Source: Hormiphora californensis (Eukaryota; Animalia; Ctenophora). From it: a DNA stretch of 64,000 nt. Location of the stretch: assembly GCA_020137815.1 (NCBI GenBank), contig CM035359.1, positions 2,728,001-2,792,000 on the forward strand, written 5' to 3'. The translations under genes and the position numbers were made by a program. Below are positions 1 through 57,000 of the stretch, piece after piece. Position 1 is the stretch's first letter, and each line of letters starts with the position of its first letter. Below the pieces are notes generated by a model, which saw only the letters and a program-made list of their open reading frames with translations, did not search any database and was not told the origin of the DNA.

Positions 1-6200
<6,200 letters not shown>

Positions 6201-7702: not shown

Positions 7703-9029
7703 ACGGGTGATAACTAAAAATTGTTACTTATTTGAAACGGCTGTAGCTTAGCCGGTATTGGGTATGGGAAAATAATATTGATAACATAGATAGCCCTAAC
7801 GGTTAGCTTCATGATGATAATGGAATATCCATCATACTACCACATCTCTTTCTGTAATGCCCGACAACGAACAGCTACTTCGAGAACGGGTTGTCCGGTT
7901 TTACCAACGTGTTTTACCCAGGAATAGACATGCTAAGAGGGACACGGCAAGGCACTTCGTAGCCGAGGGTGAGTATAAAAATACCATCTACAGAATCATA
8001 AACCGATTTATCGCCCGGGGCACCACTGGGAGGAAGAAAGGCTCCGGTAGAAAGGCCAGGATTATGACCCCTTATCAATGCCGCCGATTGAAGAGGTTAG
8101 TGGACCACCGCACAGGGGTTTCACAGCGCCGTCTCGCCGCCAAATTTGGGTGCACCCAGCCGTACATCTCCAAGGCCATCAAGAAACTTGGAATTGCTTG
8201 TAGAAAGAGGTCTAAGGTACCTTTCTATCGGAGTGCCACAGCGATGAGCATCGCCCAGAGAGCCTGCAGGAGATTGTACGACAAGTGGGGACAGGAGGAC
8301 TTCCTCATCGATGATGAGAAATATTTCGGTCTAAGCGGGTACCAGATGAGTGGCAATCGGTCCTTCTACACTTCAGACATCACCGCCACCCCTGATCCGG
8401 TCGCAACATTTGGTAAACAGAAGTTTGAACCCAAGGTTCTTCTTTGGATTGCCATTTCTCGCAAGGGGATTTCAAAGCCTGTTCTGATCTCTGGGAAGGG
8501 GATGGCGATTGACAAGCACAAGTACGTGAACAGCTGCCTCAAGCCCGGTCTCCTCCCCTTCATCAGGAAGCACTACCCCAACGGTGGGTACGTCTTTTGG
8601 CCCGATAAGGCAAGTGCCCATTATGCAGATCACACACTCTCTTTTCTGAGAAGAAAGAAGGTAAACTTTGTGCAGAAGGACGACAATCCGACGAGTGTGC
8701 CACAGTGCAGACCCATCGAAGACTTCTTTGGACTTTTGGCTACTCGGGTGTACCAGGGAAACTGGGTTGCTAGGGACGTGGAGGAGCTCAAGAGGCGGAT
8801 AAGGAGGTGCCTGAAGGACATCCCTCAACCAACCGTACAAGCAGCTATGGACACTGTCAAGAGGAAGCTGCTGAGAGCCTATAGGAGAGGACTTCTTTCT
8901 GTTTGCCATTGATGTTTTTTGTTCAAAATTGTCTGAAAAATCGTTGTATCACTGGCGCGAAGCTCTATCTCAAAAGGGAAAAATTCTACAGCCGTTTCAA
9001 ATTAGTAACAATTTTTAGTTATCACCCGT
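7703..9029 (+). mobile_element. IS630/Tc1/mariner DNA transposon, DD37E type, full length
   Basis: ~44-bp TIRs ACGGGTGATAACTAAAAATTGTTACT(T/A)ATTTGAAACGGCTGTAG at 7703-7746 and 8986-9029 (1 mismatch); TA duplication at 7701-7702 and 9030-9031; single transposase ORF inside. Confidence 0.95.
7857..8912 (+). CDS. Tc1/mariner-superfamily transposase, DD37E catalytic triad, 351 aa
   Basis: N-terminal HTH region with GSGRK linker; IDDEKYF (D1), FWPDKASAH (D2), PQCRPIEDFF (E); 37 residues counted between D2 and E; uninterrupted ORF. Confidence 0.93.
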   Translation: MPDNEQLLRERVVRFYQRVLPRNRHAKRDTARHFVAEGEYKNTIYRIINRFIARGTTGRKKGSGRKARIMTPYQCRRLKRLVDHRTGVSQRRLAAKFGCTQPYISKAIKKLGIACRKRSKVPFYRSATAMSIAQRACRRLYDKWGQEDFLIDDEKYFGLSGYQMSGNRSFYTSDITATPDPVATFGKQKFEPKVLLWIAISRKGISKPVLISGKGMAIDKHKYVNSCLKPGLLPFIRKHYPNGGYVFWPDKASAHYADHTLSFLRRKKVNFVQKDDNPTSVPQCRPIEDFFGLLATRVYQGNWVARDVEELKRRIRRCLKDIPQPTVQAAMDTVKRKLLRAYRRGLLSVCH

Positions 9030-10812: not shown

Positions 10813-11603
10813 TCAGAAGCTGACAGGACATAAAGCTTGCGTGAGAGTGCCCGAATACAGACCACAAACAGTTAGAATATCAGAGAAATTTTGTTTGATT
10901 TTGGTGTAATTTTGAGCGTGATATTTTAGCTACTATCTTTCATACAGACCACAGACTTTATGACAGGTTGCAACACCGTTCTGTCGTGCGGCAGAGTTTG
11001 GTACGCTATAACCTAGAGCCACACACACACACACACACCAATCACTGCGGTATTATACTGTTCGAAAATACATCACTGAGTTTGGCGTTGTAGTAGGAAA
11101 TTGGAAAGCTTTTGTACCCATAGCTGTTTCCTAGGCCAGGGGCGGCAATTTCTGATTTGCCGCATACGGCGTCTAGACGGCGTCGCAACGCCGTCTAGAC
11201 GGCGTCTAGACGGTATACCGTCTGGACGGGTTTCGGTGAAATCAGCTAAAAACGGTACCGAAATTGCTTGAGACGGGTTATAGACGGTATCAGACGGTCT
11301 CTAGACGGGTTATAGACGGTATCAGACGGTGTGTGTGTGTGTCGTGTACCTCCCGTACTTCCACCCACTTGCTGTCGTTGGGGAGCAGCGTTCCCTAGAT
11401 GTATCAGACGGTGTTGCGACGGTATCAGACGGTCTCTAGACGGTGTCTAGACGGTACCGTCCCGGCGTCTGGACGGCGTCTGGACGGTGTCTAGACGGTA
11501 TCCGTCCGAAGTTGAGACGGCACGTCTGAAAATTGTACCAGACGTTGAGACGGACTTTTAGAACTCCGTCTGTATTTCAGACGGAGTTTTAAAAGTACGT
11601 CTC

Positions 11604-12125
11604 AGTAGTAGGTAAAATAGCCCCGCTGTCTCACCTAAAAGTGAGCCACACCATATTTGGGCATATGACGTCATCACATGCCCAAATATGGGCATATGAC
11701 GTCACATCACGTGACTTATCACGTGACATATCACGTGGTCGTGTATATGACGTCACATCACGTGATATGTCACGTGATCACGTGACATATCACGTGACAT
11801 TAGCACATGAGCACGTCATGTGACATTCTCTATTGGTTTGTGTTTGTCACATAATATGGTCACATTCTCAGGTTACCCCTAGAGCCATGTACCAGGTGCA
11901 GTGGCGTCATGACTACTAATGCATTGGTCTGCATATCAACTATCAAGTGCTGGAAATAGAGAGTGAGAGAGGGATAGAGAGAGATATTCGGCATATTATG
12001 AAGTAATCATGAATGATCATTCAGTGACAGTGAATGATCATTAATGATCATGAATGATCATTTTAAGGTCATTTTAGAGGTAGAGACAAATAAACTAATC
12101 TTTTTTTTTAAAGGATATCAAATAT
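11604..12125 (+). repeat. Left terminal inverted repeat of the mini-Polinton
   Basis: Reverse complement of 16130-16730 with small indels; contains 7 CACGTG and 3 TGACGTCA motifs and a TGATCA-rich block. Confidence 0.88.
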
Positions 12126-12145
12126 ATATTTCACATAATCTAAGG

Positions 12146-13444
12146 TTATACAATAAAGAACTGACGGTTTTTGTTAACTTCAATAATTTGTTCATACCAA
12201 GCCAAAACAATAACCACCAAATCTTCAGTTGGCTCCCGAAGCATTTCCAAAGATAAACTAACATTCCCACTTCGTCCCAAGTTTAACCCATGTTGATTCT
12301 GCGTTTTGTCTTGCGTTAGATCAAAAGCCAATGCAGGATAAACTCGGTAATGGTGACAAACCAAAGAATCTGCTTTGCTACCAGTTTCCAGAACAAATTC
12401 AGCCAGCATATTTGTCTCTAAATGATCGGTCATTTCCAAAGCTCGGGGAAAATGCTCTCTTCCATTGACATAAAGTTGAGCTGATTTTACTAAACGGAGA
12501 GAATAGGGATTTTTACTACGCTTATTTCCAATGAGAGCATTTCTATCTTGTACACAGACGAGAAAGAAATAAGGTAGTGGTCCATTAAGGAGATTATCAA
12601 TTTGAATGTTGGTGGTTCCATTTGAAACTGGGAAGGTAGTCATGATTTTCTTATCTGCATGATAAATCGCCCTTTCTTTTACAAGTCGTCTTTCTATAGC
12701 AGAAATAATAGCATCTCTAGGGCGCTGGAAAGTACATCTTAGAATTACTTTGTTGAAATGAACTTCATCAGTGTTAGTATCAGCCGCCAGGAGAATATAA
12801 CCAGAGTCGTTTTTCGTTAACTTCACATGGTACGTTACCTCCGATGGAAGAAGTTTTCCTTGCTTGAACAAAGGTATATTGAACTCCGATCTCAGGTAAA
12901 CTTTCTTACCCTCTTCAATAACTTTAGCTCTTTCTTGGCCACTTGCATTTTTGGGGCTTCCTGTTGTTGGATAGAAGACCAAGTTTTCACTTCCGTCTTT
13001 ATCGCCCACAGTATCAAGGAGCAATCCTTCTCTCCTCTTAATCAAAGGTTTCGAATCGTGACTGTTGTGAATAACATCATCCCAGAACTTGAAAATCCCG
13101 TAGGCATTCTCATAAGATTGAACTAACGGTACACCGCCAACCTCAACCTCAACATTCCTCCACAAACTTGCAGCAAGATGTGGTGCAGTTGACACATTTT
13201 GATCAGCTGCTGGATTTGTCCCAGTTGCTGTAAGAACCCGAAGTTCTGTGAAAATGTCAACACTTTCCAACATGAAACTTTCCATAGATGGGATTGTAAA
13301 ATTTATTTCATCAGAGTACTCAAGTGAGTTGGAGGGATAAACATCTACCCATTTTGTCTCTACAATGGCTGCCTGGGTGGGCTGAGGATCCCATAGATGT
13401 AGTTGAGAGGGAAATCCCTCTGCAGACTTAATATACTTAGTCAT
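12146..13444 (-). CDS. Polinton/Maverick-type major capsid protein (double jelly-roll), 432 aa from the ATG at 13444
   Basis: Intact ORF. N-terminal LHLWDPQPTQAAIVETKWVDVYP..L....INFTIP resembles the Maverick MCP LDLF..PPTQ..I....WV...P......IEF.I pattern; also NPYS, LYVNG...P, C-terminal ALAFDLTQD...G.VSL.L and terminal I.VNKNR motifs. Confidence 0.85.
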   Translation of the reverse strand: MTKYIKSAEGFPSQLHLWDPQPTQAAIVETKWVDVYPSNSLEYSDEINFTIPSMESFMLESVDIFTELRVLTATGTNPAADQNVSTAPHLAASLWRNVEVEVGGVPLVQSYENAYGIFKFWDDVIHNSHDSKPLIKRREGLLLDTVGDKDGSENLVFYPTTGSPKNASGQERAKVIEEGKKVYLRSEFNIPLFKQGKLLPSEVTYHVKLTKNDSGYILLAADTNTDEVHFNKVILRCTFQRPRDAIISAIERRLVKERAIYHADKKIMTTFPVSNGTTNIQIDNLLNGPLPYFFLVCVQDRNALIGNKRSKNPYSLRLVKSAQLYVNGREHFPRALEMTDHLETNMLAEFVLETGSKADSLVCHHYRVYPALAFDLTQDKTQNQHGLNLGRSGNVSLSLEMLREPTEDLVVIVLAWYEQIIEVNKNRQFFIV

Positions 13445-13480
13445 AGTTACTCCTCTGTCCCATTGCAAGCCTTTTATAGT

Positions 13481-13792
13481 TTATGATAACTGACCATATC
13501 TTCTTTTTCCAAGCTTGTTAGTAAGTTTATTAGTTCCAGTCTCAATTTGCTTTGCTGCATAATTACTAGCTGCTCCGACAAGCTGATGTCCAGCTTCTTG
13601 TAGACCGGGTTTTGCTATTTCAAATCCTTGTTTTAGAATAGTCTTCCCGATTGGAATTACAGTTTTGAATATTTTTTTCAAAAAACCTCCTATTCCAGCA
13701 CCTGATTGGTTCGAATAGACACCGAGTTCCCGTGAAAGTGCTTGGTCGTAGACTGCGGGATTGGGAGTAACATCGACATAAGGCACACGCAT
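13481..13792 (-). CDS. Small Polinton/adintovirus-like virion protein with QxGxG motif and cationic amphipathic helix (putative membrane-penetration/core protein), 103 aa
   Basis: NQSGAGIGGFLKKIFKTVIPIGKTILKQG; lies directly upstream of the MCP on the same strand, the position where Mavericks carry a small QxGxG protein. Confidence 0.65.
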   Translation of the reverse strand: MRVPYVDVTPNPAVYDQALSRELGVYSNQSGAGIGGFLKKIFKTVIPIGKTILKQGFEIAKPGLQEAGHQLVGAASNYAAKQIETGTNKLTNKLGKRRYGQLS

Positions 13793-13866
13793 GATTGATT
13801 ATTTTTTAGCTGTAAGTCCTATATATAGCCTGGATGTTCATCAAATGATCATCGCCATCATTTGTC
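13793..13866. promoter_or_regulatory. Putative bidirectional promoter between the divergent gene pairs
   Basis: 74-bp spacer between head-to-head ATGs (13792 on -, 13867 on +) containing the self-complementary CTATATATAG at 13819-13828. Confidence 0.45.
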
Positions 13867-15669
13867 ATGGAGTGTATGTATTGCAATCGAATGTTTTCAA
13901 CTAAACACAGCCTGGCTACACATAAGAGCCGATACCACAATACTGATTTCCGATCGGAATGCGAGAGCAATGAATCGTTAATCATGTTAATGATGAAAGC
14001 AGTTTTAGATGGGGATATTGTACTAACAACGGCGGAAAAGGAACGGTTAAAGCCAGCTAGGGAAAGTATACGGAAAATTGGGCAGGTGCACAGTTGCTCG
14101 ACAGTCTATTTCTGGCTGCTATTTCTGGCTGCTATTTCTTCCTGCTATTTCTGGCTGCTATTTCTGGCTGCTATTTCTGGCTGCTATTTCTGGCTGCAAG
14201 ACCTATTTCTGGCTGCAAGACCTATTTCTGGCTGCTAGACCTATTTCTGGCTGCAAGCAGCCAGAAATAGATTTAGCAGCCAGAAATAGATTTTAGCAGC
14301 CAGAAATAGGGTTTCTCTCACGTGATCTCTCTATCTCTGTATGGGATACGAGAGACGAATCGGTGAAGTGATTTGGTATCTGCAACTGTAATTGGGTATG
14401 GGATACGGGAGACGAATCGGTGAAATGATTCGGTATCTGCAACTAATTTGGTATGGGATACGGGAAACGAATCGGTGAAGTGATTCGGTATCTGCAACTA
14501 ATTGGGTATGGGATATGAGAGGCACCTCTTTTGTTTTACCTGTCCCCTAGCTCCAAACTTGAAATTTACGCCATCGAATATGTGTTATCACACCCATTGC
14601 ATCACCGATAAACTGATCTCATATCACGCTGTGTAATATGTCGGGATAGGATAACCGATAAACAGATCTCTTATCGTGTAACTTTTCATGCCTCGTGTCA
14701 CAAACAAGGTGGGTGGGACCCATTATGACAATCCATTATAAAAGGCCAAATTTTGACGTCAAGGCATCGCAATCAATTATGCCGCCACCGGACAGCTCCT
14801 ATACCTTCTCTCCCACGAAACGACAAAACCACGAACACTCCTTGATCAGGGACAACATCGAGGAGGAGCCTCGACATTTGCTCCCTCTGTATGGAGGGAA
14901 GACTCCAGCTTCAGGCCTGCCCTCTGAACAGGCCCACATCTCCGCTCCGGATCCTGCGGCGTTTCAACCTGTGTGCCTGCCGGGAGGTATCGAGGACCGT
15001 AAACCTGGATCCGAATACGCACATCGAGAGGACCATAGTGGACCAGTTCCTATGCGACCACCATCTTCCTCGCCAACACGTCCAGCAGCAGCGCCCGACT
15101 GAGGACAACATACTCGATCTGCAACTAATTTGGCAGGTCCCGTATCCCATACCCAATTAGTTGCAGATACTGAATTACTTCACCGATTCGTCTCTCGTAT
15201 CCCATACAGAGATAGAGAGATCACGTGAGAGAAACCCTATTTCTGGCTGCTAAAATCTATTTCTGGCTGCTAAAATCTATTTCTGGCTGCTATTTCTGGC
15301 TGCTAAATCTATTTCTGGCTGCTTGCAGCCAGAAATAGGTCTTGCAGCCAGAAATAGGTCTTGCAGCCAGAAATAGCAGCCAGAAATAGCAGCCAGAAAT
15401 AGCAGCCAGAAATAGACTGTCGAGCAACTGTGCACCTGCCGAAAATTGTTGATTGCGAAAAAAGCCTAAGCGAAGTATTTGACAAAAATCTTGAGCTAGC
15501 AATCAAACTGATCATCAAATTGGTCAAACAAAAGTTTCCCACCCTAATATTCGACAGTCCGAGTAAGTCGTACAATTCACCTGGTGATCCCGATTCAACT
15601 TCAAGTGAAGAATACGATTCTGAAGGCAGAAGCGACAGTTCAAGGGAGAGTTCTGGGCACAGTAATTAG
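13867..15669 (+). pseudogene. C2H2 zinc-finger protein of the mini-Polinton (144 aa when restored), interrupted by a 1360-bp insertion
   Basis: MECMYCNRMFSTKHSLATHKSRYH is CX2CX12HX4H; joining 14080 to 15449 (removing the insert and one TSD) gives in-frame ...ESIRKI-VDCEKSLSEV... through to the stop at 15669; acidic/Ser-rich tail. Confidence 0.8.
14081..15440. mobile_element. Non-autonomous TIR element (Merlin- or MULE-like) inserted in the zinc-finger gene
   Basis: Termini GGCAGGTGCACAGTTGCTCGACAGTC / GACTGTCGAGCAACTGTGCACCTGCC; 8-bp TSD GAAAATTG at 14073-14080 and 15441-15448; arms with 13-bp CTATTTCTGGCTG arrays and ~57-bp subrepeats. Confidence 0.88.
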
Positions 15670-15706
15670 TATTTAAGTACATATAATAAGTCAATACAAA
15701 AGAAAG

Positions 15707-16123
15707 ATGGATGTAATCGTATGCAGTAATGAACAAAATCCCGCCAACTTCACGGTTGAGCTAGAAGAAGCTCTTGATCTATCTAAAATGTATCAAGTTG
15801 CAATAAAAAGTATATCGATTGCAACTCCATCAAATGATGACTTACCTGCGGGAAGGAAATTAGGACTTATCTACTCTAATATGGTTCATCCCACAAACGT
15901 AAATCATGAAAAGCGGAGATTTATGGGTATCTTCCCGTTTGGACTGAATGAGGGCTACAATCATCACGAGTTTACTAACCCAACATACAGAACTGTCTCT
16001 CGCTCAGCTATAATTGAAATGGAATTCGATATACGCAATGTCAAAAATCAAGATTTAAAATTCTTAAATGAGATTATACAGGACTTCCCGACTGTGATAG
16101 CGTTGCATTTTCGAGAAATTTAA
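15707..16123 (+). CDS. Polinton/Maverick-type minor capsid (penton, single jelly-roll) protein, minimal 138 aa
   Basis: N...FTVEL...LDL...YQVAIKSISI; IYSNMV; F..P.YR.V....I.EMEFDIR; C-terminal VIALHFR. These match the motif pattern of Polinton minor capsid proteins. Confidence 0.8.
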   Translation: MDVIVCSNEQNPANFTVELEEALDLSKMYQVAIKSISIATPSNDDLPAGRKLGLIYSNMVHPTNVNHEKRRFMGIFPFGLNEGYNHHEFTNPTYRTVSRSAIIEMEFDIRNVKNQDLKFLNEIIQDFPTVIALHFREI

Positions 16124-16129
16124 TTTTAA

Positions 16130-16730
16130 AATATAAATTTGAATAACCTTTAAAAAAAGAGTTGCTTGTTTGTCTCTACCTCTAAAATGACCTTAAAATG
16201 ATCATTCATGATCATTAATGATCATTCACTGTCACTGAATGATCATTCATGATTACTTCATAATATGCCGAATATCTCTCTCTATCCCTCTCTCACACTC
16301 TCTCACTCTCTATTTCCAGCACTTGATAGTTGATATGCAGACCAATGCATTAGTAGTCATGACGCCACTGCACCTGGTACATGGCTGACAGCCAACCGAG
16401 GAAAGTGCAATAATCTAAAGGAGGTCATGTGATAAACACAAGCCTATAGCTAGGGGTAACCTGAGCATGTGACCATATGGCATATGGCATATTATGTGAC
16501 AAACACAAACCAATAGAGAATGTCACATGACGTGCCCATGTGCTAATGTCACGTGATATGTCACGTGATCACGTGACATATCACGTGATGTGACGTCATA
16601 TACACGACCACGTGATAAGTCACGTGATGTGACGTCATATGCCCATATTTGGACATGTGATGACGTCATATGCCCAAATATGGTGTGGCTCACTTTTAGG
16701 TGAGACAGCGGGGCTATTTTACCTACTACT
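16130..16730 (-). repeat. Right terminal inverted repeat of the mini-Polinton
   Basis: Reverse complement of the left TIR, plus a 63-bp segment (16387-16449) absent from the left copy. Confidence 0.88.
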
Positions 16731-18674
16731 CGTCTCAACGCAGTCTAAAGGAAAATCGATGAAAGTACCGTCTAGACAACGTCTCAACTGAAACCGGTCA
16801 ACATACCGTCTAAACAACGTCTAGACAACGTCTAAACAGAATCTCGCGATTCAGTTTCAAATACCGTCTAGACAACTTCTCCAGCAATTTCGATACGAAT
16901 ACCGTCTAAACAACGTCTAGACAACGTCTTAAGCGAATCCGATACAGATACCGTCTAAACAACGTCTCATAACCGACACTATCTATCACTGATAGTATCA
17001 GCCATAGACAGTATATTTGAAGTTGGGTACGAAAATTACCGGGAGGATAACCCCTTTCCCGTCCCCGAGCATCGCGGTACGACTGTGCTGGTTAAACACA
17101 TGTGTAATTTTCATTCAATAGGCACACATCTACCACTAATTCCAACTGGCATGGGTAATCCAGAATGGTCTTCGAAAACGGTCGAGTCTAGACATCATTA
17201 TTTGAGACGTTGTCTAGACGTTGTTTAGACGGTATTCTTATCGAAATTGCTGGAGAAGTTGTCTAGACGGTATTTGAAACTGAATCGCGAGATTCTGTTT
17301 AGACGTTGTCTAGACGTTGTTTAGACGGTATGTTGACCGGTTTCAGTTGAGACGTTGTCTAGACGGTACTTTCATCGATTTTCCTTTAGACTGCGTTGAG
17401 ACGTACTTTTAAAACTCCGTCTGAAATACAGACGGAGTTCTAAAAGTCCGTCTCAACGTCTGGTACAATTTTCAGACGTGCCGTCTCAACTTCGGACGGA
17501 TACCGTCTAGACACCGTCCAGACGCCGTCCAGACGCCGGGACGGTACCGTCTAGACACCGTCTAGAGACCGTCTGATACCGTCGCAACACCGTCTGATAC
17601 CGTCTATAACCCGTCTAGAGACCGTCTGATACCGTCTATAACCCGTCTCAAGCAATTTCGGTACCGTTTTTAGCTGATTTCACCGAAACCCGTCCAGACG
17701 GTATACCGTCTAGACGCCGTCTAGACGGCGTTGCGACGCCGTCTAGACGCCGTATGCGGCAAATCAGAAATTGCCGCCAGGGGCCTTTACCTCCAGCAGC
17801 GATGCAATGTAGTTTGTGACATGTGTGTGTGTGTGTGTGTGTGTGTATGAGTGGAAGACTGGGAGTTTGTAATGTCGGGAACCCTTTGTGTACCATGAAG
17901 TAGGATATGAGGCCAGGGAGAGATAGAGAGATAGAGAGAGATATAGAGATAGAGAGATAGGGAGAGAGATAGAGATAGAGATAGAAAGATAGGGAGATAG
18001 AGAGATCATAGAGAGATAGAGAGATAGATCGGTGAACAATAGCTTTGGGCATCGTCACCACTTCCTCCCCCTTGCAAAATGTACTCAATGTGACTCTGTA
18101 TATAATTCCTCTCTATCTCTCTCTCTTTCCCTCTCTCTATCTCTATCTCTCTCTCACCCTCTCCCAACCGCAAATCCCCAATCTTGTGGGTTCACTAACT
18201 CCACTCCATGATAGTTAGTGGTCAATTGTGGTCTTGTCACATTGCAACTTGAACCCAATCAGTTTGGGGACGGCCACGGACCAATCAGGGACTGTTTGGA
18301 GACAGCCACGGACCCATTTGATACGTCACGAAGGTCTTTGTTAAATTGTCACCTCATCTCAGTATCTTTTGATCATCGCCCTGTCACCTTATCGCCCTGT
18401 CACCTCCCTATCAGATAAATTTGCAGTCCCCATTTGTCTCATTTTAGTGGTTGATGAAAGTGTTGATCGCGGTTTTTGTGGTATATCTCACCTTGTCAAC
18501 AACATGGCCGGCCCCTGTGTGAATTTGTGTGTGGTAATGTGTGAATTGCCCCCTCCTTAGTCCTTGTCACAATGTAGTCAATTGTCACCCTGTCATCAAT
18601 ATATCGTGAGAATCACAGTACCACCTCGAGACATCCGATTCCAATTTACTAAAGCTGGGTACAACACCCCAATC

Positions 18675-31458: not shown

Positions 31459-32157
31459 TCAGTAGTAGTAGAACAAAGTGTGACACGCAGCTGCTGCTAG
31501 GAGGAGGTTGACAATCACGTGGAGGTACAGTCCATACCCTCATGATGCACTGATTCCCCCAAAACAACAGCCCCTGATCACACCAATATCACTCTCTTTT
31601 CCATTGTCCATCCCCCTCTTGTTTCAGTCGCCATTTTGTCGGATAATTCATCTCTAATTATAAAGTTTGATTTATGTCTCCTCTCTTTTCTTTCCTCTCT
31701 CTCCCCCCAAACCCCCTCCCTTTCCCCCTCTCTCTCTCTCTCTCTCTCATCTCAATCCTCTCTCTCTCTCTCCTCCTCCTCAACTCTCTCGTAGTCTCGG
31801 ACTGAATTCGTTAATCTTCTACACGCCATCTCCGTCTCCAACTTCTCTCCTCTCTCGTCGGTATATCTCTCTCTCTCCTAACACTCTCTCTCTCTTTCTC
31901 TGCGTCTCCTTCACTCTCTCCCTCCTCTCATTCTCGTCAATTCTACGTCCCCTCATCCTCTCTCTCTCTCTCTTCCTCTCTCCTCTCCCCTTCTCTCTCT
32001 CTCTCTCTCTCTCCCCCCCCCCCCCCCCCCCTCCCCACTTCTCTCCCTCTCGGCCCCTTCTGTCTCTCTCCCTCAATATCAATAAATAGGGCGCGAGAAG
32101 TGAGGTACTGTTGCAATTGGGCCGTGCCATGCTCATTCCACAATATTTTCTGTTGTT

Positions 32158-32257
32158 NNNNNNNNNNNNNNNNNNNNNNNNNNNNNNNNNNNNNNNNNNN
32201 NNNNNNNNNNNNNNNNNNNNNNNNNNNNNNNNNNNNNNNNNNNNNNNNNNNNNNNNN
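32158..32257. other. Assembly gap (100 N)
   Basis: Run of exactly 100 n. Confidence 0.99.
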
Positions 32258-32273
32258 TTTTTTTTCCTCCAAA

Positions 32274-32314
<41 letters not shown>

Positions 32315-32320
32315 TCGCTT

Positions 32321-32364
<44 letters not shown>

Positions 32365-32954
32365 TCTCTCTCTTCTCTTCTTTTCCTCTTTCTCCCTCTC
32401 TCTCTCTCCCTTCACATTTTTGTCGTTCCTCTGATATGCTTGTGCCCCCTTGCATGATACACAATTTAGTACAGTGCTATGTGTTTCAGTGACTCCAAAT
32501 GACCGACTGGTGACCGACAGAAATGGACAGATAACTGACAGACAACCAATGACTGACATTGAACTCATCTCTAATGTTAATGTGGTAGGAGGCTCATCTC
32601 CAGTACAGGATATGGGTCTGTGTTGTTTCCAGTGTAGAACAACCTACAGTTACCAAGAACTTCATTCTGGATACAGTTCGGACTACTACAGTCCTTATAA
32701 CAATCCCAGAGGTCATTAATAAATCTCATTAATTCCCCCCCACCGGGTATAATGGGTATATTGCTACCAAACTTACTGACTGACAGAGCTGCATTTGAAA
32801 ACAAAGTGTTGTTAAAGCTGGAGTGTGTTTTGTGACGAAATGACGCGTGATTATCGTGTGTTTTGTGACCAATAACGCGTGATTATCGTGTGTTTTGTGA
32901 CCAATAACGCGTGATTATCTTGTGTTATCCCTCTAACCTCACTCCCTCCCCCAG

Positions 32955-45484: not shown

Positions 45485-46229
45485 TTTTTTTATTCACTAA
45501 CCCCAACACCGATTGGCATCACTTTCCAACAGCCGAAGAGAAGCTGCCGAAGAGAGAAAGGGGGTAACCGTAAGGGGGTAACCGTATGAAGAGTTAATCG
45601 CGATGAGTCTCATTCACATTGGGTTCGATCATTTGCCCCCGGTGTTGGGGTTAGTAATAAATAAATCTTAAAATCACTCACTCAAATAAACAATAAATAT
45701 TATAAATAAAAAGTCAGTCAGTAAAATCACACATTGCAATGGGTGGTGGAGTCGTGAACTTTTTCCTCGTGCCCCTGAGTGAGACCAGAGTACTTCTGAG
45801 GAGACAGAATCGTATCCGCGTTCTCAGGAAATTAATCACTTCAGCGTATTTGTCCTTGTGTTTGGTAGAGATGCGTGAAGCGAGCTTTTTGATTAGTCGT
45901 TCTGCCTCTGGTCCGGAACCTCCGGAAGTGGCCATAACAAACGGGGTGAAAGCCCCTCTCTCAGATTCTCTGATTCGTTGTTGGTAATCACGTTTCTTCC
46001 GACTTTCATTCATTTTGTACAGAGATTTTGGGTCTTTTCCTCTGTAACTGGGTGCAGTAGGATGAAACACTGCAACGTCCACGTGGGCCCCCTGTAGTCC
46101 TCGCCACAACCCAATGGCATACACGTCACTGCGAGCATCAGGTGCTGTATTGACACTTCGGGGGTAGTCATCTGGGTTAACTGGCTGCAACACTTTCTCA
46201 ATTTCAACACCCTTGTATCCTGCATGAGA
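45485..46229 (-). mobile_element. 5'-truncated CRE-clade-like non-LTR retrotransposon (restriction-like endonuclease C-terminus) inserted into a small palindromic MITE (45382-46249)
   Basis: Minus-strand peptide ARSDVYAIGLW...VDVAVFHPTAPSY...ESRKKRDY...FTPFVMATSGG.GPEA...LRGTR (stop at 45714) resembles a CRE-type RLE domain; short poly-T at 45484-45491 is the poly-A tail; TSD CACGCTAGTGTC(T) at 45472-45484 and 46230-46242. Confidence 0.8.
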
Positions 46230-46785
46230 CACGCTAGTGTCTCCTACTACGCTACACGTTAACATGTGATAAACGCGCAAAACAATTACGCGCACGACTT
46301 TGGGGGGGTGAACAGTTGAAAAAAAATGGACTTTAGGCCAACCCAAGTTTTAAAATTTTTATTATTTAGGCGAGCACTTTTTTAAAAGATCTCTTCTCCG
46401 CGATTTAGTAAACCCGAAACCGACGAAGATAAGTCCTTGTTGCCGATTCATGTTTCGTGTACGTCTGCGGAATGCCTTGAGATCTGTTGGATTCGGCCTG
46501 AGAGTTGAAATCAGTGAAAACTTTTGTTTTTTGTTGTTGAAAAGTGATGCCAATCGGCCTGTTGGATGGAATCTGTCAAGTGTCAGGCCAATGTTCTGAC
46601 AGATACCGCCTGGTTGGTCCACAAATCGCTGGGGATCACATGACTTAGCCACTGTGTGCCTTTTGGTTGTCCGTTTTGGGGTTTCTTGGCAGTGAAAAGT
46701 TTGGTTGGTTCTTCAAATTAGCAGGCGTTCAGTTATGAACGCCTGTTGAAATTGAGAGACGCGCCACACTAAGCAAATGCTGGCC

Positions 46786-54044: not shown

Positions 54045-57000
54045 AATGGTAAGAAATGCCCTGACAAGCACCTTCTGGCCTGTAAAAAGTTTCTCAAATT
54101 TGGTACCTCTGAGAATGGTTGCACTGCCACAGACTGTCAGCTATTCCACCCAAAACTCTGTCGTTTCATTCAGTCCAATGCCAGTTGTTTTGATGTCAAA
54201 TGCAAATCCTATCATCCGTTCAGTTTTAATAAGGCACGGAGGGATGCTATCAAGGCCAAGGCAACTAGGGAAAAGTCATCAACTGGGACGAGTAAGAGAA
54301 ATGACAAATCTCGAAATAAGAAGAAGCCGCCCGTTGAGAGTAGAAATGAGAGAAAGAACAAGAGGTCAAATACTGAGAACTCGGATTTTCAAAAGCTCCA
54401 GGATCTGATATCCAAGTTAATAGTCAGGATGGACTCGTTAGAGAAGAGAGTCGAGGAGATACCCCGAGAGAGGATGCCGAGTTCGGAATCGATAAATCCA
54501 TCCCAATTCCAAAAGGTACCTATCCCTCAACCTCAGCCGTTCCTGAATCCGTGGCAGGCGTGGAATGCCCCACGCCAGTTCGCTCAACCTGCATGTTACT
54601 AAATGCCGGCGGCTTTAATCCAGGAGCAAACAGTAACACTAGGTGGAAAAGAGATGTCCTATGTCAGGAGTTGATCAGCCTCAATGAGAAGGGTGTTAAT
54701 GTGCCCTTTATTGGTATCACTGAGTCCTGGCTAAAGGATTTTCATCTAGATGCCCAAGTGCTATTCCTGGGTATGCTGTTTGTACGTGCAGACAGGTCAA
54801 ACCGGCAGGGTGGTGGGGCGCTACTCTATGTAGATGAGGGTATCCCAATGGAATGGTCATCTAGCTTTGATGACGGGAGGTGTGAAGCACTGTTTTGCAG
54901 ATTTCCTCGTGTTCTATGAGCGTTGCTGTGATCTACCGACCCCCCTGATACACCCATCCTCAAGTTTTATTAACTCCCTTGATTTCTTGAAAAAACAGAT
55001 AGAGAGAATAGACCCAGGTGACGATTTAGTTATCATGGGTGACTTTAATCTTCCGGTCATCAACTGGGATACTATAATATAGGTGGTAGGTCTGCTGAGA
55101 ATACCCGGTCGGCTCAGGCGTTGCTAGATTTTATGGGATCTAATTTTTCCTAGAACAGTTTGTTAACCTACCTACTAGGGGTTCAAATATACTCGACCTG
55201 TTCTTGTCTAACCGGGAGAGTTTAGTGGAAAATGTGAGAGTGGTACCCACAGAGATTTCTGATCATAATTTGGTATCAGTAGGTCTCACTTTCCATCCAG
55301 TCTGCCCGAAACAGAGAAGGAGAATCAAGCCAGAGTCTTTTCGATCATTGGACTTTCATAACGGCGATTTTGATCTTCTCCGTGAGAAACTCAGTGAGAT
55401 AGATTGGGTTGGTCTCCGACAGGCTACTGATTTTGAATCCTTTCCCTCGGTTTTTCTACCGCTTTACCAAGTATGCTGTGGTGTCCTTCCCGAAGGTTAA
55501 GATCCTCGTGGCAGACCAAATTGTTTTAACAAGCTACGTAGACGGAAAAGAAAAATAAGATGTCGGATAGCTGCTATGTTAGAGAAGGGTCAGATTGCGC
55601 GGGCTGAGGAGTTATCAGATGAGCTCTCCAAGGTGTGCTTAGAAATCAGAGATCGAGTCTTGGCCAGAAAGGACCAGCATGAGAGGCGGGCCGTGGACAA
55701 GATAAAATCTGACCCACGATTCTTCTACTCCTTTGCGAAAATGTTTGCAAAAGGTGTATCCAGTATCCCTGTTATCACGGATATCAATGGAAAAACAACC
55801 ACTGACACTAAGAAATTGCCGATCTCTTTCAAAATCAATTCTGCAGTGTGTTCAGTAACCCAGACAACCCCAATACCCAGGATCCGGTCTTTGAATGCCC
55901 GGTATTAAATTGGAAGACCTGGGAATCACGCTGAGTGATGACGACATTATCAAAGCGTGTAAGGATCTGGTGACAACCTCCTCTTCAGGACCTGATGGTG
56001 TTCCTGCAAAGATCCTGAAGGAGGCTGCGGAGGCTCTGTCAGTACCCATTGGCCTTATTTGGAGAGAATCTATGGACCTGAGAGTAGTGCCCGAGTTTTA
56101 CAAGATGGGCTATGTAGTCCCCCTGTTTAAGAAAGGCGATAGATCTTCTCTGAAAAATTACAGACCTGTAACCTTGACAAGCCATGTGATAAAGATTCAC
56201 GAGCGAATCATGAGGGAACATATGGTTAATTATTTCGAGCGTAACTGGGCTTTCTATCAAGCGTCAGCACGGCTTCAGAGCGGGGAGGTCCACACTGACC
56301 CAATTATTGGGCCACTTCGACTGGGTGCTAAATCCCTATGTGATGGAAACGACACAGACACAGTCTACCCTGGACTATTCCCGTGCCTTCGACAATGGTA
56401 GACATACGACTCCTCCTCCTCAAGATCAGAAGATATGGAGTGCATCCACAGATTGTGGATTGGCCTGGAGTCATTTCTGTCTGGCCGGAAACAAAACGGT
56501 TGTGCTAGAAGGGTGTCAACTCAGTAATAGCAGTAATCATCAGCGGTTGTCCCTCAGGGGACGGTGCTGGGCCCCCTCTTATTCTTGATATTTCTGAATG
56601 ATTTGGAGGGTGAAGTGCTTGATGCCCTTCTAAGCTTCTTTGCTGATGACTCCAGAGTGGGCATGGAAATCTCTGATAAGAGGATTGCGAGAAGTTACAG
56701 AAAGACTTGGATCGTGTGCATCAGTGGCTGAAAGAATAATAATGAAGCTCAATGAAGAGAAATATGAGTTAATGGGTGCATCGTCACAATCGCTCATCTC
56801 TCATGAACCACATGCCGATGGTCTGCGGTGTACTACTACACTAGTGGTTGAGAGATCCTTCTACCATCTGCATCAGCTCAGAGACTTGGGCGTTACAGTC
56901 TTCTGAGATCTCTCCTGGAGGCCGCATTATGTCAATCCTGACCACAAGAGGCAGAAGAATGTCCCAGTGGATACTCAGCGTTTTTTAGTGGCAGAGATAC

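Follow-up and report, generated by a model that had tools for sequence, protein, structure and literature searches.

How can a stretch of animal DNA carry genes for a virus shell without the enzymes that replicate, integrate and package such DNA? The question is raised by an element in a window of 64,000 nucleotides from Hormiphora californensis (contig CM035359.1), which had been annotated from its letters alone as a capsid-only mini-Polinton. The features of the locus, in positions of the window, are as follows.

11141..17778, host foldback repeat, arms 99–100% complementary; the element sits inside its left arm
11598..11603, left copy of the TSD, CGTCTC, 6 bp
11604..16730, whole element, ending in AGTAGT (11604) and ACTACT (16730)
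11604..12131, + strand, left TIR, 528 nt, starting with AGTAGT
about 11651–11800, predicted subterminal hairpins in the left TIR (DNA fold of 11604–11800, without shuffle control)
12146..13444, − strand, double jelly-roll major capsid protein (MCP), 432 aa, from AF2 model and Foldseek
13481..13792, − strand, QxGxG protein, 103 aa, homologue of the gene directly upstream of the MCP in full-length relatives
13820..13827, TATATATA, lying between the starts of the divergent QxGxG and zinc-finger ORFs, putative shared promoter
13867..14080, + strand, zinc-finger ORF 5' of the insertion: C2H2 finger and a 38-residue segment akin to a conserved 107-aa Polinton gene
14081..15440, nested non-autonomous TIR element, 1360 bp, flanked by the 8-bp duplication GAAAATTG (14073–14080 and 15441–15448)
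15442..15669, + strand, zinc-finger ORF downstream of the insertion, with a helical segment and a Ser-rich acidic tail
15707..16123, + strand, short penton, 138 aa, a minor capsid protein with a single jelly roll and no middle insertion domain
16129..16730, − strand, right TIR, 602 nt, ending in ACTACT
16731..16736, right copy of the TSD, CGTCTC, 6 bp

Analysis of the boundaries confirmed the AGTAGT termini, long TIRs and perfect 6-bp TSD of the initial annotation. The two TIRs differed by 8 mismatches in 514 aligned columns and by indel blocks of 12, 14, 63 and 10 nt. The empty site is preserved in the other arm of the host foldback repeat, itself perhaps Harbinger-like; because this sister arm carries a single CGTCTC at the matching position, the TSD is not a chance match. 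The repeat that holds the insertion has arms of 99–100% identity, and an integrase has therefore acted recently, in trans. This evidence for mobility comes from one insertion site with a TSD. The TIRs with AGTAGT ends agree with the (AGT)2 or (AG)3 termini of Polintons/Mavericks, as does the TSD length, a 6-bp TSD with (AGT)2 ends being the integration signature given for Mavericks (PMC8097293).

Subtraction of the nested insert and one duplication left 3759 bp (5127 − 1368), in accord with the annotated size of about 3.76 kb. The tight packing in two divergent pairs was likewise seen, with gaps of 14 bp between TIR and MCP stop, 36 between the MCP and QxGxG genes, 74 between the QxGxG and zinc-finger genes, 37 between zinc-finger and penton genes, and 5 between penton stop and TIR; the outer stops (12146 and 16123) thus lie beside the inner TIR edges, as had been noted. 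TATATATA may act as a promoter shared by both gene pairs. An Rfam search gave no match. All four ORFs were present as described, but they are not all intact, since the nested element, perhaps Merlin-like and with 20 of 20 terminal bases inverted, splits one gene, the zinc-finger ORF, in this copy. Contigs from five of the eight runs compared cross this site without the insert, so the compact form is real. Two contigs of run X5 (12064–13753, and 13724–14072 joined to 15441–16195), with 8 differing letters each, cover the element from TIR to TIR, and mis-assembly is therefore unlikely.

Comparison of the ORFs with known proteins showed that the 432-aa ORF encodes a double jelly-roll MCP of the kind expected in a Polinton, as anticipated by its annotation as a capsid protein: its AF2 model (pLDDT 87.9) matched the capsids of PBCV-1 (E 3.6e-17), Sputnik (4.8e-16) and mavirus (6.8e-14) in Foldseek. 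Pfam returned no match for the MCP, QxGxG protein or penton, and a PDB sequence search only one weak unrelated match. The 138-aa ORF, annotated as a minor capsid protein, is identified by homology and modelling as a penton homologue. It matched 249–304-aa pentons in two blocks (best E 6.7e-21), lacks the 110–160-aa middle domain found in full-length relatives, and is assigned to the single jelly-roll pentons because it is homologous to the penton-position gene of full-length loci. Its low-confidence model (pLDDT 61.5) was closest to the mavirus penton (Z 8.2, rmsd 3.7, 132 aligned), and it also matched capsid chains of PBCV-1 and SGIV, while PGP3, a jelly roll that is not viral, scored on a par (Z 7.9). 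Among themselves the short pentons, which make up a single clade, are 67–86% identical.

By sequence, the QxGxG ORF corresponds to the conserved gene that precedes the MCP: homologues occurred in 22 of 30 loci (E ≤ 2e-6), with the motif kept in all 22. The protein, which might correspond to PW or Cupiennin, may be an internal virion protein. In the ESM Atlas it matched unnamed clusters, as did the 107-aa gene, and recognition scores were low. The zinc-finger ORF is a chimera, with a 38-residue segment that matches the 107-aa Polinton gene (hhalign prob 81, E 1.2e-5, 38 columns) and a finger that scored below the cut-off for Pfam zf-C2H2 (E 9.5e-4). It had seven homologues at 72–90% identity, and its 3' part aligned with the C-terminal half of natural, uninterrupted ones. 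An intact virion core protein was considered for this ORF and rejected, as the QxGG motif and helix at the C-terminus of the 107-aa gene are absent. The claim that all four ORFs are virion genes was accordingly not supported.

A tblastn search with 332 peptides of 29 related loci and one pPolB fragment found no remnant of pPolB, integrase, ATPase or protease in the element, as had been claimed; 111 matches fell inside the four ORFs, and one, of low complexity, elsewhere. By these enzymes the element is not an autonomous Polinton: there is no room for pPolB between the TIRs, the RVE integrase of its relatives is absent, and so are the packaging ATPase and cysteine protease. Of the 18 loci that reach the 3' end of the MCP gene, 17 have a protease after it. 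The one exception, L001, is a close relative of the element and stops 40 bp past the MCP stop; it is the sole close relative with DNA context (1435 bp, no ends seen). Integrase, ATPase, protease and a pPolB motif occur in full-length relatives whose MCPs are about 40–50% identical, among them a Mnemiopsis gene model; complete helpers therefore exist in the family.

These relatives also bear on whether the element could have arisen recently, through one isolated internal deletion in a full Polinton, or could be an artefact of assembly, as might be suspected from the single integrated copy in hand and from the N gap and low-quality stretches in the draft assembly of the window. Full-length relatives have the order penton–QxGxG–MCP–protease on one strand, whereas the element carries its penton and the gene derived from the 107-aa one in the opposite orientation to the MCP, has a shorter penton, an extra zinc finger and no remnant of an enzyme gene, and is 51% identical in its MCP to the nearest full-length locus. 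The gene adjacency, moreover, recurs at about 96–99% identity in runs from two organisms and in one from a seawater metagenome. A single deletion from a near-identical Polinton, random decay and mis-assembly, all raised or argued against in the initial annotation, do not fit this pattern, and the deletion or artefact reading is very improbable and largely refuted.

Comparison of the MCP with that of L001 (dN 0.019, dS 0.139, dN/dS 0.137; Fisher P 1.4e-12), which covers one pair and one gene, showed purifying selection at the sequence level. MCPs also stay full-length in relatives diverged by 20–45%. The short-penton and zinc-finger families co-occur and have diverged to about 70% identity, the order is rearranged and dN/dS is 0.14; the lineage is therefore old. 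With diverged relatives and conserved proteins, the element is likely a long-lived helper-dependent parasite of Polintons, or one segment of them, and not a decayed fragment. A capsid module kept under purifying selection in an element that still integrates is strong indirect evidence that selection maintains a particle stage; virions of animal Polintons have never been observed (PMC8097293).

The element encodes its own capsid and no replicase, as a satellite does, and on balance it is probably a capsid-forming satellite that uses the polymerase, integrase, packaging ATPase and protease of a helper Polinton. TATA-like boxes would let host RNA polymerase II transcribe both divergent pairs of genes, the helper integrase would recognise the AGTAGT ends for excision and integration, and helper pPolB would copy the linear DNA from the TIRs. 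The element's MCP, short penton and QxGxG protein would then assemble a shell, to be filled by the helper ATPase and matured by the helper protease at the retained QxGxG motif; for the zinc-finger chimera one might speculate on a role at the DNA, in regulation or in packaging specificity. With its own capsid, the element could package itself in preference to the helper. No helper came to light in the search of the 30 loci and of IMG/VR for matching TIRs, and the element's compatibility with a helper's ATPase and protease is unproven, the nearest full-length MCPs being only about 50% identical. If the element is such a satellite, Polintons have capsid-forming parasites of their own.

The missing ATPase and protease would suit an element that moves only as a non-autonomous transposon and forms no particles, its capsid genes interfering with or complementing resident Polintons in a role that is either defective-interfering or of benefit to the host. 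The penton has lost the insertion domain at its surface, for which Born et al. suggest a role in host recognition (PMC6048507), and polB-less Polintons are reported to be still mobile in insects (10.1101/2025.02.07.637071). However, short pentons without an insertion domain occur naturally in capsids (an SGIV chain of 139 residues matched the low-confidence model at Z 7.5), mavirus MCP and penton self-assemble without other proteins (PMC6048507), and the full-length MCPs of the diverged relatives speak against a loss of the particle; we regard this explanation as unlikely.

The MCP tree (FastTree, midpoint-rooted, 7 partial or fused rows left out, without clade test) placed the element in a 21-row clade (support 99) that contains none of the 10 labelled protease-flanked loci. 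All contigs of this clade are at most 5953 bp, with plateaus near 4.2–4.9 and 5.8–6.0 kb; contigs above 6 kb accounted for 0 of its 11 representatives and 22 of 63 outside it (P 0.027, in a test chosen after the data were seen and among metagenome contigs that are generally short). The clade and its lack of contigs above 6 kb speak for the satellite reading. The sizes would also suit a capsid segment of a segmented polintovirus, in which each segment integrates on its own and the genes for pPolB, integrase, ATPase and protease sit on partners that have related ends and no capsid genes. The element cannot fill or mature a capsid by itself, and obligate partners are the simplest account of why that capsid is under purifying selection. 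The penton slot also appears exchangeable: a contig of run X11 departs from the window at 15725 with 231 letters beyond unmatched, and in gene model P0117 the zinc-finger ORF is continued by a divergent penton tail. Vesanto virus, with 3.3–5.8-kb segments and related TIRs, is a precedent (PMC8363768). Some contigs share only the subterminal part of the TIR (seven contig ends loose before 16639 in X9, and one X14 record matching 16639–16692 only), but these could equally be helpers or non-coding derivatives, and no partner segment was found within the 64-kb window or in IMG/VR. A segment is a less probable reading than a satellite. Under it one might tentatively propose, with no greater confidence, that one clade of polintoviruses in ctenophores is segmented, with TIR-bounded segments of 4–6 kb, a shared integrase and separate integration, the element being the virion segment with a minimal penton in an exchangeable slot. 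If the element is a segment, its virus is multipartite, with a double jelly-roll capsid, and may serve as a model of how segmented pPolB viruses originated; a segmented clade would mean that animals have a dsDNA virus of the double jelly-roll type that is both segmented and integrating.

Whether satellite or segment, the element defines a minimal virion gene set that is open to expression and imaging, and Polinton surveys keyed on pPolB and integrase would overlook its kind. Our literature search found no description of a capsid-only mini-Polinton. cf-PICIs and satellite tobacco necrosis virus have their own capsid genes and take missing functions from a helper, with integrase and replication genes kept in cf-PICIs; their folds and hosts are unrelated, and the analogy is functional only. 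Polintons/Mavericks (PMC4028283, PMC8097293, PMC8502044) share with the element (AGT)2 ends, long TIRs, a 6-bp TSD, a double jelly-roll MCP, a single jelly-roll penton and small conserved virion-module genes. They measure 13–20 kb against about 3.8 kb and encode the pPolB, integrase, ATPase and protease absent here, whereas the element's genes are rearranged into divergent pairs and its penton lacks the insertion domain. The converse loss, of MCP, protease and ATPase, has been noted (Krupovic 2014, PMC4028283). The polB-less Polintons of Pieris and other insects are likewise TIR-flanked and mobile without their own polymerase, but they derive from variants of at least 12 kb, carry TE cargo and, in the sections available, are reported to have lost only polB, unlike a compact capsid-only lineage (10.1101/2025.02.07.637071). 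Drosophila Vesanto virus and bidnaviruses consist of linear segments of 3–6 kb bounded by related TIRs, in a pPolB-related lineage with variable segment content; unlike the element, Vesanto virus is described as ssDNA and bidna-like, and the accessible text describes neither 6-bp-TSD integration nor a double jelly-roll capsid (PMC8363768). Virophages and hyperparasitic PLVs (mavirus, Gezel-14T, entomopoxvirus PLVs) are integrating, capsid-encoding, helper-dependent double jelly-roll viruses; they differ in size (about 15–25 kb), in their own replication and integration genes, in the ATPase and protease that virophages retain, and in a helper that is a giant virus or poxvirus and not a Polinton (PMC11296320, PMC6048507).

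Close named homologues came from Pleurobrachia, in which gene model P0093, counter to the satellite reading, has a long penton downstream of the MCP on the same strand. As indirect evidence for that reading, penton and zinc-finger records had four longest-contig sizes in common against 0.03 expected, one of them (4308) common to an MCP too; the layout of the 55–80% relatives is deduced from such coinciding sizes and Pleurobrachia gene models. IMG/VR and prokaryote-genome scans found no relative of the element, and its TIR had no match among the 30 loci or in IMG/VR. Viral metagenome X14 held two MCP records plus host-repeat records. In viral metagenome X12, two 151-letter records without differing letters (13134–13284 and 13322–13466) and no cover on high-copy host repeats hint at enrichment of element DNA, a pattern of single-read pieces and missing cover that was left uncounted. 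Run X15, possibly RNA, had two 151-letter records on the MCP (depth 2), unusable as expression evidence, and X9 had no cover at 15914–16147, a gap that proves nothing. In X5, depth was 334–405 over the core, 47 at 11089, 410 on the TIR contig and about 5000 at 11667; these values suggest several copies, no full-TIR partner in X5 and a larger family with the last 100 bp, but summed depth is not copy number, and they were left uncounted.

The element integrated recently and is not an autonomous Polinton; it belongs to an old Polinton-derived lineage that lacks the enzymes and is under selective constraint. It lies within a host foldback repeat and is itself interrupted:

11604-16730, mini-Polinton element, AGTAGT at the start and ACTACT at the end, CGTCTC at either flank
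11141-17778, host foldback repeat, arms 99-100% complementary, element within the left arm
14081-15440, nested TIR element, 1360 bp, non-coding, with an 8-bp duplication

The TIRs (528 and 602 nt) aligned over 514 columns with 8 mismatches and four indel blocks. The opposite, near-identical arm of the foldback repeat contains one CGTCTC at the corresponding position, so that the empty site is visible and the insertion is recent; the ends, the flanks and this empty site bear out the AGTAGT termini, long TIRs and 6-bp TSD of the initial annotation. The host repeat (11141-11603 plus 16737-17778) is young and about 1.5 kb long; it has GGCGGC termini, is flanked by AGG on each side and contains subrepeats of 11 bp. 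It is abundant in runs from both organisms. Its left arm alone carries a 68-bp insert (11333-11400), a piece of another repeat, since contigs run on past 11400 into other sequence. A subterminal TIR hairpin (16639-16692 and 11642-11695) was common to records differing on both sides or inward, and is a candidate cis signal common to the element and a helper or partner.

Subtraction of the nested insertion leaves 3759 bp, and the intergenic gaps measure 5-74 bp. The direct junction from 14072 to 15441, lacking the nested element, was present in contigs of 5 of the 8 sequencing runs examined, X11 among them; the other four come from no more than 3 samples, X1 and X6 sharing one that may be the source of the window, and the three runs lacking junction contigs yielded few short pieces only. 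Two contigs of run X5 cover the core from TIR to TIR, each with 8 other letters. The compact uninterrupted form is real, and the proposed size of about 3.76 kb holds. The nested element contains subrepeats of 13, 19 and 55 bp and is high-copy in the runs. A second element type, about 96% identical, was found in organism B (run X9), in X11 and as metagenome locus L001, which matched it at 16 of 16 listed alleles. This type is known without its ends; its MCP, QxGxG and zinc-finger genes adjoin, and its X11 contig diverges from the window sequence after 19 bases of the penton gene.

The model of the 432-aa ORF (pLDDT 87.9, 75-row alignment) matched the MCPs of PBCV-1, Sputnik, SGIV and mavirus (E 3.6e-17 to 6.8e-14), which identifies it, on predicted structure, as a double jelly roll MCP, as had been supposed. 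Word-indexed search revealed 81 homologues, and 1163 were found at E 0.001 among cluster representatives; among relatives with a named source, the close ones were gene models of Pleurobrachia bachei and Mnemiopsis leidyi supplied a more distant one, which makes a ctenophore host likely. Comparison with L001, a single pair, gave dN 0.019 and dS 0.139 (ratio 0.137). Selection on the MCP implies that particles, or another capsid function, matter; intracellular interference without particles of the element's own is unlikely and ranks below the satellite and segment readings considered below.

The 138-aa ORF matched the first 40 and last 90 residues, without the middle, of a 249-304-aa penton gene upstream of QxGxG in full-length loci (best E 6.7e-21). 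Its model was weak (pLDDT 61.5, 5-row alignment); the top match among 48,161 chains was the mavirus penton (Z 8.2, rmsd 3.7, 132 aligned), followed by a PBCV-1 chain (Z 8.0), chlamydial PGP3 (7.9, 7.6) and a 139-residue SGIV chain (7.5). PMC6048507 describes a 139-residue insertion domain in the mavirus penton with a proposed host-recognition role, and the short penton has probably lost its equivalent. Ten short pentons (136-141 aa) grouped in a single clade (support 98), with a long Pleurobrachia penton as its sister. Some full-length relatives carry two tandem penton genes (L004:454-2078, L021:224-2069), and L015 has a second penton-like ORF that is short and degenerate (L015:2413-2877). Homologues of the 103-aa ORF occurred in 22 of 30 loci, all 22 keeping QxGxG. 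The zinc-finger ORF gave a C2H2 match below threshold, had 7 natural homologues (129-168 aa, 72-90% identity) and matched the conserved 107-aa gene, which follows the ATPase in full-length loci, over 38 columns (prob 81, E 1.2e-5). The suggestion that these are virion genes stood for the MCP and penton, which match capsid folds; a virion role is merely putative for the zinc-finger ORF, which has an acidic tail in place of the 107-aa gene's QxGG-helix tail.

In the 30 metagenome loci compared, the full-length order on one strand was integrase-ATPase-107-aa gene-penton-QxGxG-MCP-protease, with a pPolB motif on the opposite strand in L015. A Mnemiopsis leidyi gene model on a 21.5-Mb contig (P0078) fuses a pPolB-like C-terminal part to an MCP part, which would place both on the same strand, unlike L015. 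A protease followed the MCP in 17 of 18 loci holding the MCP 3' end; the eighteenth, L001, stops 40 bp past the MCP stop codon. In the element, both the penton gene and the one derived from the 107-aa gene are directed away from the MCP, and tblastn with 332 peptides revealed no enzyme-gene remnant in the 64 kb. This inversion and the lack of a remnant led us to reject simple deletion of a full-length Polinton; a one-off deletion or artefact, ranked last, is highly improbable.

PMC6431247 and PMC8097293 indicate that a Polinton-type integration signature needs an RVE integrase, and that such a linear DNA bounded by TIRs is expected to depend on pPolB for its amplification. The element encodes neither, so both must act in trans; a complete Polinton would be the putative helper supplying them. 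We lean towards a capsid-forming satellite whose helper is a complete Polinton, since the family includes complete relatives and neither the 64-kb window nor IMG/VR yielded a partner segment. A close rival, possible though less probable, is the capsid segment of a split virus, which better accounts for ATPase and protease compatibility and agrees with the short contigs across the window's MCP clade. In a FastTree phylogeny covering 106 MCPs after removal of 7 partial or fused rows, this 21-row clade (support 99) contained none of 10 labelled protease-flanked loci, and 0 of its 11 representatives had a longest contig above 6 kb, compared with 22 of the 63 not in the clade (post hoc test, P 0.027). 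Short-penton and zinc-finger records had four longest-contig sizes in common (0.03 expected by jitter simulation), and a 4308-bp longest contig was common to MCP (79%), penton (69%) and zinc-finger protein records; these matches are indirect evidence of linkage among the three genes. Layouts varied within the clade; in gene model P0093 a long penton lies downstream of the MCP, and in gene model P0117 a divergent penton tail is attached to the zinc-finger gene.

No description of a capsid-only or segmented Polinton was found in the full-text literature, Repbase and subscription journals lying outside the search. Non-autonomous Polintons are included in Repbase, and some capsid-bearing ones may already have been described. 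Related material appears in PMC8502044, PMC11071308, PMC11296320, PMC8363768, PMC4028283 and PMC12859917, and in the preprints 10.1101/2025.02.07.637071, 10.64898/2026.10.13.758929, 10.1101/2023.10.06.561300 and 10.1101/2024.01.15.575659.

Elsewhere in the window, a homopolymer-rich, low-quality-looking stretch (1-3800) and a 100-N gap within 31943-32476 mark a draft assembly. An intact 350-aa ORF with HTH matches (7821-8912, + strand) resembles a Tc1/mariner-type transposase, and ORF fragments at 54377-56401 and 45714-46349 resemble LINE endonuclease and reverse transcriptase.
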